A program made the position numbers. DNA of 48,264 nucleotides, taken from a virus. Lineage: Duplodnaviria > Heunggongvirae > Uroviricota > Caudoviricetes. The DNA lies in IMG/VR virus record IMGVR_UViG_2718217789_000011. One strand, 5' to 3'. This document shows positions 39,001 to 45,000 of this stretch, in pieces (the first letter of the stretch is position 1; every line of letters begins with the position of its first letter).

Positions 39001-42000
39001 TGTGATTGCTCCGACCCTGCGGTCATCACCTGCTGCACAGCGCCCGAATCGGCTTCCGGTGTCGTGCCTGCTGGCTGACCAGGATTGACGGTCTGAACAT
39101 CCCCTGCCTGGTTCGTGGTGTTTTTTTTGCCATGAACCATAGTGTTTTTGTCCTGTTCCTGTTCTTTCTCCTGCTCCTGTTCCTGTTCTTGGCTTCGAAG
39201 CCCCTTAAAAGCCCCTTCGAAGCCCCTTACCGAATTTCGGCTATTATTCCGCCTCACATCCAGATGGAAATCCGTTTTATATCTGTCGTAAAACACTGAC
39301 AGAAAAGCGTTTTCAGGTAATGATGCATACTCATTCCTGACACCTGCACAACGGTTATCGCCAGGCTTCAACGTTTCCCCAACCTGCCAGGCTGCCATTT
39401 CATGGACCCAGACCATCTCTGCATCATGGTCATAGCTACAAAAACCAGCTTCAACAGCCCTTTTAAGCCCCTTTGAAGCCCCTTCCAGACCAAGCCCGGT
39501 TTCATGAGCAAGGTATAAAACTGGCAGGTAATACAAACCCAGCATATTTGCGTGAGGGGATGTCATCAGGTAAAAAGCAACAACTTGCGCTTCTGCACCC
39601 GCCTTTCTAAGTTCTCTCCCCGTTTCTCCCAGCCAGAATCGCGGAGAAACTTTTGCGTAATCACGCATGGCTACCTCATCTGGTGCCGAACCTTCCTCCG
39701 GATATAATCTGTGGTTCCCAATCGACAGAACCAGAGGAGGTTCGACATGTATTTTTTGAAAAGCCTTTATCAGGCTCATGTATTAAATGTTGCAGCAACA
39801 AACCGCTGGTGTAACAGCCCCGAAATGCTCCCGGATTACAGAGCCTGGCTGCGCGCCGAAACATACCTTCGTCTCGACATATTGATTAGCGAACTTCAAA
39901 AAGAGACTGCATCCATTCATAACCTTCAGGGTATCGACGCTGTTCGCATTCTGGTATCGCGCCATAGTGCTCTCTCAATAATTGAAGTGCGTCATCTCTC
40001 TTTTTCTGAACTGATTTTCTTGCTTCAACCAGCTCTGGAATCAGCGAATATCCCGCCGGAAGTGATCCAATACCCACCTCATGTTGACGAGCAGTTACAA
40101 GATGTGCCATACAACCAGCGTGCTGGATTGACTCCCTGCTCAGAGGCTGAATGGGATCACTCTCTGCTGAAGAAATACCAAGATTTGTATAATCCTCAAT
40201 AAGCCCGGCACACGCTTCTGCATCAGCCAGCTTTATTCTGGTTTCCTTGCGCTGTTCTCTGGCTGACAAACGCCAGAGCAGCGCATTAGCTTTATGTATC
40301 AACCACTCTGCCAGCTCCACATCAGATAAACCGCCACGCCAGATGTGCGGACTGTTTTCGTAAACGCTCAGTGTCAATTTTTTGTCATTACTCATATTTA
40401 TTACCCAATTAATGCACAGCCAGAGTGTTTCCTGCCGGGCCACCACGATTCATCTGATCGAACAGAACGATCGCTGATGCAACGAAATCATCAATATCTT
40501 TCACCAGCCGTTCCTTCGTCTCTACCAACTCCCGAAAATAAGCGGAACTGTGGCTGCGCATTCGGGCCACCAGCGGAGGCGGCATCGCTTTTTCGATCGC
40601 TGGTAACAACGCCTGAATTTTTTTAACCGCATCAGGAGTGTCTTTCTCCACCCAGCGGAAAATTTTCTGAGTATTGCGAGCCATGGCTTCCGGATGGCTG
40701 TCGTCATACAGTTCCGGGAACGTCATTCCCAGCTCGAAATACGCTTTGGTAATTTTCGCAGCCGGTACTTTTTCGCCGTCCGGATGCGCCCAGGCATTCA
40801 TCGCCATGCGGATGTGTTCATGCTTGATTTTCATGAATCAACTCCGGCGCATTTGATGTGTTAACCTTACATCCAACAGGTAAACCGTCGGTTGGGTTAG
40901 GATAAATATCTGGGCGGATTTCATGCGGGGTAACTTCCCACTTCATTAGTTGGCATAACGGAATTACCTGCTTTGGGGGAACGCCAAAGCTAAACCATTG
41001 CCAAACAGTCTGTTGAGCGACCCCCATATAACGACCTATTTCAGCCTGAGTGTATTTCTGCCTAATTTTTTCGCGAGTGCTATCTAGCATTTTGCCCTCC
41101 TCTAAAAACTATAAGCAAAGCCTACAATAAAAAACTGTATGCAATCAACAGTTTTTTATTGTGATGCTTTTAACAGTATTTACCTGTAAAATTGAATAAT
41201 GATGAGCGCCCTAGAAGTATCTATGTACAGAATCAGCAAGCTTCTTCAGGAAACTGGATGGAGCCAGGCTGAGCTTGCCCGTAGAATTGGTGTGACACAA
41301 CAAACTGTTCAACAATGGGTCAGCGGTAAGGCTACACCTAAAGCCTCAAGTTTGGATAAACTGGTTGAGGTTTCAGGGCATCCATTGCATTGGTTTTTAT
41401 TGCCTCCTGAAGAGTGTGAGCAAATTTTCACCCCTGACACGATGAAAATTGGTCCTCGCCAACGCGAACTGCTCCAAGCTTTTAGTGCGTTTCCTGAGGA
41501 AGACCAAGAAAAAATGCTTCAAGAAATCAAAGACAAGAAAAAATCAATGGAAGAAACCATTGCTAGGTGGCTGGCGGCACAAAAAAGCCGCCGGGCGTGA
41601 CCACAGTACAAGAAGAGGAGTTATGCCATGGGTACAGCCCTTTCTCCGATAGTTTCAGAATTCGAAACTACCGAACAAGAAAACAGTTACAACGAATGGT
41701 TGCGCACTAAAGTAACGTCAAGCCTTGCAGACACTCGCCCCGCAATTCCACATGACGAGGTAATGGCTGAAATGGAAAATCTTATTGCTCAAATTGCTGT
41801 AACTAACAAGAGCGAGTAATGTTACCCATTTTATGGCTACCGTCTGCTCGCGATGATTTGCGCCAGATCATAACTTACATCGCCAAGGAGAACCCACCGG
41901 CAGCACGTAGACTAAAAATACGCATTGAAACATCGGTATTACCTCTATCTGAGCATCCGTACTTATATCCACCAAGCGAACGGGTTTCTGGATTGAGAGA

Positions 42001-45000
42001 GATCGTGACCCACCCTAACTACATAATCCTGTACAGAGTAGCTGCTTCAAGCATTGAGATTGTAAGCGTGACACATTCTCGGCGACAATTTCCCTTCTCT
42101 ATCTGAGTTGAACAATTTTCATACTCCCTCTTTCGAGGGATTTTTTTGCCCAAAACAACAATTAAAAACTGTTGACACAAAAACAGTTTTTTATTGTAGA
42201 TTACATACACCAACCACCCACCCCGCCCCACAGAACGCCGGGCAATACTTCGAGTTACCAAGCAGTGGTCAGGGGGTAAGTAGCCAGCCCGAGGCGTATG
42301 AACATGACGGCAGGGTTCAACTTTAATAACTATGCAGCAGGTTTTTGTTCCGCTACCCGGCGTTAAGGGGAAATGAGGTCAACATGGATACTATCGATCT
42401 TGGCAACAACGAATCTCTGGTGTACGGCGTGTTTCCCAACCAGGACGGTACATTCACCGCGATGACGTATACCAAAAGCAAAACGTTTAAAACCGAAAAT
42501 GGTGCCCGTCGCTGGCTGGAAAGAAACTCAGGTGAGTGATATGGATTTCGACACAATCATGGAAAAGGCTTACGAAGAATACTTCGAAGGCCTTGCCGAA
42601 GGCGAGGAAGCTCTCAGCTTCAGTGAGTTTAAACAGGCGCTTTCCAGTTCGGCAAAATCTAACGACTAACGGAGTTAAAGATGGAATTTAAAGATTTACT
42701 AAAAGAAATCCAGGAAATTGCAGCACATGCACTTCACCAACGTCTGAACGAAGTTGAATTAGAATCTGCAACGAAGAAATACATTGATAATATGGCTCGT
42801 AATGTGCGCGATGCGTTTACCGGATTGTACTCTGTTTCGGTAACAAACAACCAGAATACTGAAGAAACTGCAAAGCGGATTGCCTCGGTGATGGGTTTTC
42901 ATGTCGAGGAAAAGTATTCAAAAAAAGAATTCTGGAAAACTACAAAAAAATTGCAGAGCGAGAACTGTCATCTCCTGCGGCAATCGCTTCTTTCTATGAG
43001 GAAAGTTATTCAGATGACACAGGATTACCGGAACTGCTCTCATTACTTGAAAAATTCGGAATTATCATGAAAGGGACTGCGTCGGCGGATTTCACATACT
43101 CAATGATGGCTGCTGATGGAGAGCCTTTTCCTCCCGAACTTAAAATAACCCCCGGCAATCATCCGATGGTAACAATAAGAGCAATAGAGAATTACTGGTT
43201 TAATCCAGTTCAACAATAGTTGGTCTTTGCAATATTTTTAATGGGCCACTACGCCCTTAATCTCGGGCGGCGTTTAACTCTTTATTCAGTAAATCAGACT
43301 GATACTGATTTGGCTTTGTAATGATACTGTCAAGTTTTGATATATGAAATTCAACATGTTCTGGACAGTTAAAAATGTAATAACCGCCCTTCTCTAAAAA
43401 GCCAGAAAGAGCGTTACAGGCAGGGCATGGTTTGTTTGGCATTTTATCCTCCATTAAGGGCTGAATTAAAAATGGAGACCAACACGCTGCTACGTGTGGT
43501 CGTGCGCCGGACACAGATAAGAATCCGGCACTGACAGTTTACTGAAAGGATATATCCCTGAAAAGTCAGGGCATAACACGAAAGTGCACGGCGAAGTCCT
43601 TCTCCCTTAGAGCCGTCGTTAAATTTAATTCGACCGTGCGCTTCCGGTTGTGGCAATCCGCGAAATGGCGCGGCGGTAAGTATGGCGGGGTTATTCTTTC
43701 CCCGTTGAGGACACCGGGTTGTCAGGTTGACCATACGCTTAAGTGACAACCCCGCTGCAACGCCCTCTGTTATCAATATTCTGGTGACATTTGGCGGTAT
43801 CAGTTTTACTCCGTAACTGCTCTGCCGCCCTTTTTTAAAAGTGAATTTTGTGATGCGGTGAATGCGGCTCAGCGCACGCGGAACAGTTAAATCGGTAAAG
43901 CGGTCATTTGCTGAGTAACGAGAATGCTCTGTATCCGGCGTTAATTGTTAACTGGTTAACGTCACCTGGAGGCACCAGGCACCGCATCACAAAATTCATT
44001 GTTGAGGACGCGATAATGGAAAAGTTATCATGTAATGCCAGCACGTCTGAACTTCGTTTCGAAATTGGCGTTATCACTGGAGACAAAACATTTATTGAAG
44101 ACGCCATTAAGCAGAGAAAACTCGAGCAGGACCTGTTAAATGAAGTATGCATTCCTTCAATGCTGGCTCGTCTGGACCTGCTGCAAAAAGGATATAAACA
44201 ATGAATACAACATTTGCACTCGTTCTGACAGTTTATCTTGTTTCCGGCGAATCTCTTGAGCTGGTGACTGGCTTATACGGTTCAATGAAAGAATGCATGG
44301 CTGCAGCAGCAGAACAAAAAATTCCCGGTAACTGTTATCCGGTAGATAAAACTACTCACACTAATAATAACGAAATACCGGCAGGACTTTAAAACAGCAC
44401 CGTAATTAATATCCGGTTTCATTTTTATATGCCAGCAATGGCAGGGATTTGTTCACCCTTAAATCTGTAATGAGGTTAAAACACAATGAGTAAAATCTTT
44501 ATTTGCGCTGCTATTCCTGACGAACAGGCCATAAAAGAAGATAGCGCTGTTGCGGTGGCCACTGCCATTGAAGCCGGTGATGAGCGTCGCGCACGCGCAA
44601 AATTTCACTGGCAATTTCTGGAGCAATTCCCGGCAGCTCAGGACTGCGCTTATAAATTTATTGTCTGCGAGGATAAACCCGGCATACCCCGCCCTGCCCT
44701 CGATTCCTGGGATACCGAATATATGCAGGAAAACCGCTGGGATGAGGAGTCAGCTTCCTTTGTACCGGTCGAACCAGAATCCGATCCGATGAACGTCAAT
44801 TTTGACAAGCTGTCCCCTGAAGTACAGAACGCAGTCCTGGTTAAATTCGACACATGCGAAAACATCACCGTTGATATGGTGATTAGCGCACAGGAATTAC
44901 TACAGGAAGACATGGCAACATTCGGCGGACATATCGTTGAAGCGTTGATGAAAATGCCAGAAGTTAACGCCATGTATCCTGAACTTAAACTGCATGCCAT

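Follow-up and report, generated by a model that had tools for sequence, protein, structure and literature searches.

The immunity region described here lies in a caudoviral genome of 48,264 nucleotides (nt; IMG/VR record IMGVR_UViG_2718217789_000011, the whole of which is called the window below). It is that of the defective lambdoid prophage Sp4/CP-933M of Escherichia coli O157:H7, and its genes are paaR1, paaA1 and parE1. As the best explanation of the region as a whole, we consider it very probable that the three genes form the immunity module of Sp4/CP-933M and that PaaR1, a repressor of the CI/DicA type, acts at two flanking operator regions, OR and OL. This reading is carried by the gene identities, by the anatomy of the region, by operator motifs whose distribution is not random and by the joint variation of OR and OL among related loci. 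A preliminary description of the same DNA had proposed the lambda-like order of OL, repressor, cargo and OR, with a toxin–antitoxin pair in the position of rexAB, and this arrangement stands, two operator sets having been confirmed. It had also put forward as new the idea that the toxin–antitoxin regulator doubles as the immunity repressor at both operators. The idea is supported by the co-variation of OR and OL, but its novelty is not upheld, since it has been established experimentally for PaaR2 of prophage CP-933P (PMC8630535) and since the Sakai record already labels the window gene 'phage repressor protein'.

The three + strand genes reported earlier, a helix-turn-helix (HTH) repressor, an antitoxin of 63 amino acids (aa) and a ParE toxin, are found by open reading frame (ORF) and Pfam analysis alike. 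paaR1 and paaA1 are separated by a 27-nt gap, and paaA1 and parE1 overlap by 1 nt in a TAATG junction. PaaA1 matches the PaaA2 structure (PDB 3zbe, 1.4e-20) and is 70% identical to PaaA2, in keeping with a PaaA-type antitoxin without a DNA-binding domain, and ParE1 matches the ParE2 structure (PDB 5cw7, 3e-36) and is 67% identical to ParE2; PaaA2 and ParE are the only Pfam families matched by the two proteins, and no sequence homology to RexA or RexB was found. These identities, together with a match in the C-terminal domain of PaaR, bear out the link to the paaR-paaA-parE systems of O157 that had been suggested. PaaR1 is 42% identical to PaaR2 over 98 aa (E 1e-20), the likeness being concentrated in the last ~45 aa, and its N-terminal DNA-binding domain has no sequence homology to that of PaaR2. 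The comparison with DicA gives 28% identity over the whole length (E 6e-12), the best match in the PDB is the 434 repressor, and phage homologues of PaaR1, among them the Gifsy-1 and Gifsy-2 repressors, carry the annotation CI. A Peptidase S24 domain, which confers RecA-stimulated self-cleavage, was not matched by Pfam in PaaR1, which is only 133 aa long, and PaaR1 belongs to the class of repressors that are not cleaved in the SOS response, as do PaaR2 and DicA (135 aa). The toxicity of ParE1 and its specific neutralisation by the cognate antitoxin PaaA1 are reported by Hallez 2010, according to the summary in PMC4803016.

The cassette ends in an intrinsic terminator, the analogue of lambda t_imm, with a 6-bp stem at 42125-42140 (four G-C pairs and a tetraloop) followed by T7 at 42141-42147. 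Its fold of -10 kcal/mol (z = -2.85) agrees with the terminator claimed earlier; it is a normal intrinsic one, and calling it 'strong' was generous. By eye, G+C-rich hairpins followed by a T run occupy the same position in the other immunity types.

Several lines of evidence identify the locus. Many O157:H7 chromosomes match its 1.6-kb core at 100% identity, and in Sakai this core is annotated as 'prophage Sp4, lambda-like phage', with ECs_1069 ('phage repressor protein'), ECs_1068 and ECs_1067 ('plasmid stabilization system protein'). Sp4 we take to be CP-933M, which is consistent with the other evidence for identity. Because PaaA and ParE share just 70% and 67% identity with PaaA2 and ParE2, because O157 genomes carry two paaA-parE places and because a homologue of paaR2-paaA2-parE2 is located on CP-933M (PMC8630535), the genes are assigned to the paralogous paaR1-paaA1-parE1 system. 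Almost all of the prophage is contained in the window, which runs from the tail-fibre region to the integrase end and is collinear with and 99.9% identical to the prophage of strain TR01, minus two IS1203 copies of TR01 (at ~24298 and ~27430); since these copies are missing, the window represents a different O157 isolate of the same prophage. The literature searched held no publication on ECs1067, ECs1068 or ECs1069 and none on the operators of PaaR1 itself, and searches for parE1 and PaaR gave only general toxin–antitoxin or unrelated papers.

The paaA-parE pair is present in 833 of 5426 complete E. coli genomes (~15%). Six copies from these genomes (L003 to L008) were inspected together with the window, giving seven loci of five immunity types on which the comparisons below are based. 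In a search of contigs from one genome per species with PaaR1, a single distant locus was retrieved, which is of no use for phylogenetic footprinting; this sole relative, in Candidatus Arsenophonus triatominarum (NZ_LWMI01000003.1), is 48% identical over residues 2-113.

Two near-identical palindromes with a 9-nt spacer had been reported to bracket the cassette as operators. The left one, AAAAACTGT-N9-ACAGTTTTT at 41130-41156, is exact (chance expectation 0.01). In the right one the arms recur unchanged (42164-42172 and 42183-42191, direct-repeat offsets 1034 and 1035), but the spacer is 10 nt, and a scan of the window for the literal N9 pattern returns the left site only. The motif TATTGTAG follows both palindromes as described, in the direction of the lytic operons, that is, on the - strand at the left and on the + strand at the right. 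Read in this direction, the OR and OL regions align over ~46 nt with invariant outer blocks and a variable centre, which is TTGATT at OR and TTGACA at OL. Since the right spacer is N10 and not N9, a model of 15-bp boxes was adopted, in which the palindrome arms resolve into phage-434-like boxes of the form ACART-N5-AYTGT, so that each palindrome is better described as two adjacent boxes. Exact copies of this pattern number four in 48 kb, against 0.15 expected, and all lie in the two intergenic regions; a fifth box, with one mismatch, lies 25 bp beyond the second OR box and had been overlooked. There are thus three boxes at OR (centres 41131, 41155 and 41180), spaced by 24-25 bp within the 108-bp paaR1-ydaS intergenic region, and two at OL (centres 42165 and 42190). 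OR box 1 and the other boxes are invariant in L003 and L004 and the spacers between them vary; OR box 3 is conserved in both, and a third box is found at the same position in the related L005 type.

Promoter elements were assigned by eye and from the alignment of PR with PL. If transcription of paaR1 starts at 41199, the three boxes would be centred near -19, -44 and -68 of PRM, and with TAGGCT as the -10 of PR they would occupy mirror positions for PR. Such a placement of boxes relative to PRM and PR resembles lambda OR. No Shine-Dalgarno sequence precedes the ATG of paaR1, and the paaR1 mRNA looks leaderless because the candidate TAAAAT -10 lies only 6 nt before the ATG. In the OR sequences of L005, L006 and L007, a -10-like hexamer is likewise seen by eye 6-7 nt before an in-frame ATG.

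An argument that one set of proteins reads both operator regions comes from the related loci. All seven share one layout, with ydaT and a cro-like gene divergent from the repressor gene, followed by paaA, parE, the terminator, PL and ydfA/dicB. Their repressors have the last ~45 residues in common (ELLQxFxAFPEEDQ...ARWLAAQK), preceded by swapped N-terminal domains of at least three kinds, which are unrelated or have diverged strongly. When OR and OL are aligned locally, the best scores are 12-20 for loci of one immunity type and 7-11 for loci of different types; across the five types OR and OL change together with the repressor N-terminal domain and the cro-like gene, as expected if the same proteins read both sides. 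Relative to the PaaR2-type locus, homology ends at 40845, just upstream of the ydaT ribosome-binding site, and resumes at 41535 inside the C-terminal domain of paaR. From these boundaries of the non-homologous segment (40846-41534), the segment that determines specificity comprises ydaS, OR and the paaR N-terminal domain, to which a short OL/PL block is added.

The related loci also show mosaicism inside the cassette. Although the repressor proteins of the window and of its L003 and L004 relatives differ at only four of 133 positions by our own count, their paaA-parE nucleotide identity to the window is 85.0% in L003 and 81.3% in L004. In L004, the OR and the DNA for the repressor N-terminus are 96.7% identical to the window, the antitoxin gene is frameshifted and parE is intact, apparently as an orphan toxin. 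L008 (1662-2459; E. coli strain 06-00048) has two repressor genes in tandem before paaA-parE; their products, the one PaaR2-like (123 aa) and the other PaaR1-like (131 aa), each carry the common C-terminal domain. It has the look of an intermediate of recombination or of an immunity region with dual specificity.

How PaaR1 would be arranged on the operators is the point on which an alternative has most to be weighed. Each 33-34-bp palindrome could be one operator, bound on its outer arms by a single higher-order PaaR1 oligomer, an arrangement that we regard as unlikely. In its favour, the palindrome arms match over a long stretch and almost perfectly (OR, 15/15; OL, 21 nt at 86%), and PaaR2 octamers have been reported (PMC8630535). 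A rigid palindrome should, however, keep its phase, and the spacer varies: in the window it measures 9 nt at OR but 10 nt at OL, and L003 and L004 have 9 nt at OL. Moreover, each arm is itself a pseudo-dyad (ACAAT/ACTGT) that resembles a complete 14-bp 434 operator, and a single palindrome would not account for the third, unpaired box 25 bp further on or for the L005-type OL boxes, which are direct and not inverted repeats. Since the spacing varies (OL boxes are 24 bp apart in L003 and L004, 25 bp in the window), since each box has its own pseudo-dyad and since the L005 OL boxes are direct repeats, binding of one dimer to each 15-bp box would be favoured over one long palindrome.

We give little credence to the view that PaaR1 is a dedicated regulator of the three-component toxin–antitoxin operon only, the PR and PL elements being served by YdaS or another factor. 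This corresponds to the first description of paaR, as summarised in PMC4803016, and the near-identical recognition helix of YdaS could alone account for the shared boxes. Against it, the paralogue PaaR2 gives about 45-100-fold repression at PR and PL and a footprint on OR (PMC8630535), the N-terminal domain of PaaR1 co-varies with both operator sets, the phage homologues are annotated as CI and DicA is homologous. In addition, the immunity region holds no other repressor candidate, and the only other HTH gene checked (30172-30885) is of the AraC type. Even more improbable is a decayed relic, in which the switch is dead and the boxes persist by descent: the TR01 prophage does carry insertion sequence (IS) elements, a frameshifted integrase, a frameshifted terminase and a truncated capsid gene, but all five regulatory and toxin–antitoxin ORFs are intact in the window, the region is at least 99% identical in ~440 genomes, the whole cassette is kept in 509 of the 511 genomes with this repressor, and CP-933P, equally defective, has a working bistable switch (PMC8630535).

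The boxes and the HTH sequences would fit each other. The recognition helices read TQQTVQQ in PaaR1, AQQTVWQ in YdaS, TQQSIEQ in 434 CI and KQQSIQL in 434 Cro; the HTH motifs of PaaR1 (GVTQQTVQQW) and YdaS (GVAQQTVWQW) are 54% identical over 28 aa and align with TTQQSIEQ of the 434 repressor and VKQQSIQL of 434 Cro, the Gln-Gln pair being invariant. In crystal structures of the 434 proteins, this pair contacts the ACA of the half-site. The 434 operators were taken from an annotated phage record, as the strings were not found in the literature searched, and 434 OR3, ACAGTTTTTCTTGT, has one base fewer than the window box ACAGTTTTTTATTGT. Reading of the ACA(A/G) box ends by both PaaR1 and YdaS would fit their Gln-Gln helices. 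This argument is suggestive only, because the L005 repressor keeps the QQ motif and yet has different boxes.

Other points as well count against an active CI-like repressor working at both operators. A scan for sigma-70 consensus promoters called none at OR or OL, the -10 candidates of PR and PL (TAGGCT and TAGATT) are weak, and the PL spacer is 19 nt in the window. Measured between their centres, the paired boxes are 24 bp apart at OR and 25 bp apart at OL, which is awkward if each pair forms a single rigid palindrome. The prophage is defective in the near-identical TR01, where the integrase and terminase genes are frameshifted, the capsid gene is truncated and ISEc8 is present, and 'immunity' may now consist only of the silencing of dicB and other toxic genes. 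Finally, all functional statements on PaaR1 (DNA binding, repression, bistability, OL-OR looping and addiction) are made by analogy.

Taken with these reservations, a switch with PaaR1 as its CI/DicA-type repressor can be outlined. PaaR1 would combine a 434-like HTH with the C-terminal oligomerisation domain common to PaaR2, without a RecA-cleavable peptidase. In the repressed state, a weak PRM would give a probably leaderless paaR1 transcript that carries paaA1 and parE1 and ends at the terminator, before OL. PaaR1 dimers are predicted to bind the 15-bp ACART-N5-AYTGT boxes; on OR boxes 1 and 2 and on both OL boxes they would block PR (ydaS, ydaT and replication) and PL (ydfA, ydfB, dicF, dicB and the exonuclease), and through OR box 3 they may exert negative autoregulation at high repressor levels. 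As PaaR2 forms octamers, the common C-terminal domain would probably allow higher-order assembly, perhaps with looping between OL and OR across 1.03 kb. YdaS is expected to compete with PaaR1 for the same boxes, because its recognition helix is almost the same, and YdaT, the CII analogue, would re-establish repressor synthesis from the PRE region. As cargo placed where lambda has rexAB, PaaA1-ParE1 would make the immunity module addictive, since a cell that lost the module or had it replaced would presumably die. As PaaR1 has no S24 domain, induction would have to proceed by a route other than cleavage through RecA. Among its homologues, the repressors of Gifsy-1 and Gifsy-2 are inactivated by antirepressors.

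Table 1. Features of the Sp4/CP-933M immunity region and its flanks, in window coordinates
Feature	Position	Strand	Basis or remark
ydaT-like gene (CII analogue)	40409..40834	-	Pfam YdaT_toxin 1.2e-9
ydaS-like gene (Cro analogue)	40818..41090	-	Pfam YdaS_toxin 8e-10
YdaT box TTGATTTTCATGAATCAA over ydaT start codon (PRE region analogue)	40824..40841	.	perfect TTGATT-N6-AATCAA
Candidate PR -10 TAGGCT	41124-41119	-	
OR box 1, ACAATAAAAAACTGT	41124..41138	.	exact; between -35 and candidate -10 of PR
Candidate PR -35 TTGATT	41143..41148	-	putative; in spacer of boxes 1 and 2; aligns with PL TTGACA
OR box 2, ACAGTTTTTTATTGT	41148..41162	.	exact match to box pattern
OR box 3, ACAGTATTTACCTGT	41173..41187	.	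one mismatch; abuts PRM -10
Candidate PRM -10 TAAAAT	41187..41192	+	putative; 6 nt 5' of ATG at 41199
paaR1, CI/DicA-like immunity repressor, 133 aa	41199..41600	+	Pfam HTH_3 2.3e-12
paaA1 antitoxin, 63 aa	41628..41819	+	PF21217 (PaaA2) 68.3 bits, cut-off 27
parE1 toxin, 95 aa	41819..42106	+	PF05016 (ParE_toxin) 63.5 bits, cut-off 23
Intrinsic terminator of immunity transcript (t_imm analogue)	42125..42147	+	stem-loop and T run
OL box a, ACAATTAAAAACTGT	42158..42172	.	just upstream of PL -35
Candidate PL -35, consensus TTGACA	42172..42177	+	bracketed by the two OL boxes
OL box b, ACAGTTTTTTATTGT	42183..42197	.	fills PL spacer; 16 nt identical to OR box 2
Candidate PL -10 TAGATT	42197-42202	+	19 nt spacing here; 18 nt in L003 and L004
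PL operon: conserved leader, ydfA, ydfB, DicF, dicB	42203..44204	+	
ydfA	42384-42539	+	DUF1391 (Pfam)
ydfB	42541-42669	+	
DicF	43779-43830	+	Rfam, 76.9 bits
dicB	44016-44204	+	

The flanking operons are those named in the preliminary description, ydaS-ydaT-replication on one side and ydfA-ydfB-dicF-dicB on the other, according to Pfam (YdaS_toxin, YdaT_toxin and DUF1391) and Rfam (DicF). Beyond ydaS and ydaT, the same - strand operon continues into the replication genes, and a RecE-like exonuclease gene also lies downstream of the cassette. YdaT of the window is 86% identical to that of the CP-933P-type locus, and no similarity was detected between the two YdaS proteins. The YdaT site TTGATT-N6-AATCAA, defined in PMC9986795, has a single perfect match in the whole window, at the ydaS/ydaT junction, so that a CII-type activator site is present between the cro-like and cII-like genes. 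The 18-mer TTGATTTTCATGAATCAA is identical in L003, the L005 type and L007 (the PaaR2 type; L007 1696-1713), and L008 has a variant with two mismatches.

Between the PL -10 and ydfA lies an untranslated leader of ~180 nt (42203-42383) that is conserved in all the heteroimmune types. Of 5426 complete E. coli genomes, 3574 carry it, with as many as seven copies, and it is unannotated in 24 of 25 sampled matches; in K-12 it is found between racR and ydaF in the Rac prophage, and in Qin it is missing except for ~37 nt just 5' of ydfA. The leader has no match in Rfam even at E = 10 and folds no better than shuffled sequence (z = +0.97). Membership in the AgvB/AsxR class of anti-small RNAs was rejected, as these sit downstream of PR' (PMC4104026), and the leader is not mentioned among the Pas small RNAs. 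A nut- or put-like role in antitermination would be pure speculation. Between ydaT and the replication gene, at 39711-40446, two ORFs overlap on opposite strands (163 aa on +, 186 aa on -); neither has a Pfam match, and the 163-aa one is listed in RefSeq as 'ECs1072 family phage-associated protein'. The gene at 30172-30885 (- strand) encodes an AraC-family regulator of 237 aa with HTH_18 and HTH_AraC domains, in a late-region moron position beside three tRNA genes, and was rejected as an alternative immunity repressor since it is of the AraC type.

As regards annotation, little is added, the locus being a named paralogue whose sister system has been dissected experimentally; the practical yield is an operator model for PaaR1 and YdaS of CP-933M, five boxes with coordinates. 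The presence of paaA-parE in the same slot in all seven loci inspected, with at least five repressor specificities, lends support to the idea, already in print, that the pair stabilises the immunity modules of prophages. Because their repressor N-terminal domains, YdaS proteins and operators differ, CP-933M and CP-933P should be heteroimmune, and the prediction is one of heteroimmunity but shared YdaT control. Since YdaT is 86% identical and the YdaT box is the same, activation across prophages would be possible. A more far-reaching proposal, which we put forward tentatively as possible but on balance doubtful, is that PaaR1 and PaaR2 form two heteroimmune switches in one O157:H7 cell, that YdaT of one prophage activates the repressor–toxin–antitoxin operon of the other and so couples the bistable states of CP-933M and CP-933P, and that PaaR1 uses an undescribed 434-like operator code of 15-bp boxes in a 3+2 arrangement. 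Both immunity types are present in at least strain 2313 (NZ_AP027159.1).

The closest known system is paaR2-paaA2-parE2 with ydaS-ydaT of CP-933P/Sp12 (Hallez 2010; Jurenas 2021, PMC8630535; Prolic-Kalinsek 2023, PMC9986795), for which a toxin–antitoxin pair in place of rexAB, with PaaR2 at OR and at a downstream OL/PL, is in print (mBio 2021; Acta Cryst D 2023). By electrophoretic mobility shift assays, footprinting and reporters, Jurenas et al. (2021, mBio; PMC8630535) identified PaaR2 as the CI analogue, in the cI/dicA position. Its mRNA is leaderless, as demonstrated by 5' RACE, it lacks a RecA-cleavage domain and forms octamers, and in footprints it protects the 97 bp that separate paaR2 from ydaS, that is, OR (PMC8630535). 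PaaR2 represses PR and PRM, activates PRM at low dose and represses the additional PL933P through operators OL1-3 beyond the toxin–antitoxin genes; YdaS acts as Cro and YdaT as CII at PRE, and the locus is bistable and addictive (PMC8630535). The window shares with CP-933P the gene order and orientation, the PaaA and ParE families, the PaaR C-terminal domain without a peptidase, YdaT and its box, the downstream ydfA...dicB operon, OR between divergent genes, a second operator/promoter set beyond the toxin gene and the -10-to-ATG geometry that implies a leaderless repressor mRNA. It differs in the N-terminal domain of the repressor, which is unrelated in sequence (HTH_3 and 434-like in the window), in YdaS and in the operators, which are GTTTAGTAA-type repeats in CP-933P and ACART-N5-AYTGT boxes here. 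PaaA1 and PaaA2 do not cross-neutralise, as cited in PMC4803016.

In Qin of E. coli K-12, DicA is homologous to PaaR1 over its whole length, including the ELLxxFxAxPE motif, and has the same architecture; the ydfA-ydfB-dicF-dicB operon is homologous as well, with 97% identity from just upstream of ydfA. Unlike the window, Qin has no toxin–antitoxin pair, dicA being followed by the promoter of the dicB operon and, after 166 nt, by ydfA; its operators are of the TGTTAG...CTAACA type, and the long PL leader is missing. Phage 434 provides the best structural match to the HTH of PaaR1, and in both systems the recognition helix of repressor and Cro analogue starts with Gln-Gln, the operators end in ACAA/ACAG...TTGT around a centre rich in A/T, and OR3 abuts the -10 of PRM. 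However, the window boxes are 15 bp long with ACAA and ACAG half-sites, whereas the 434 operators are 14 bp (ACAA-N6-TTGT), the C-terminal domain is unrelated, and the position of the -35 elements with respect to the boxes is not the same.

The analogy with lambda rexAB is positional only, as PaaA and ParE are not homologous to RexA and RexB, and PaaR1 lacks the S24 autocleavage domain. The distance between OL and OR is ~1.03 kb in the window, with just two clear boxes at OL, as compared to ~2.4 kb in lambda. What the two systems have in common is the plan: a repressor and cargo genes on one transcript that runs toward a co-directional PL and ends at a terminator before OL, a tripartite OR, a repressor mRNA that is leaderless in lambda and appears so here, and analogues of Cro and of CII, the latter with a site of its own.

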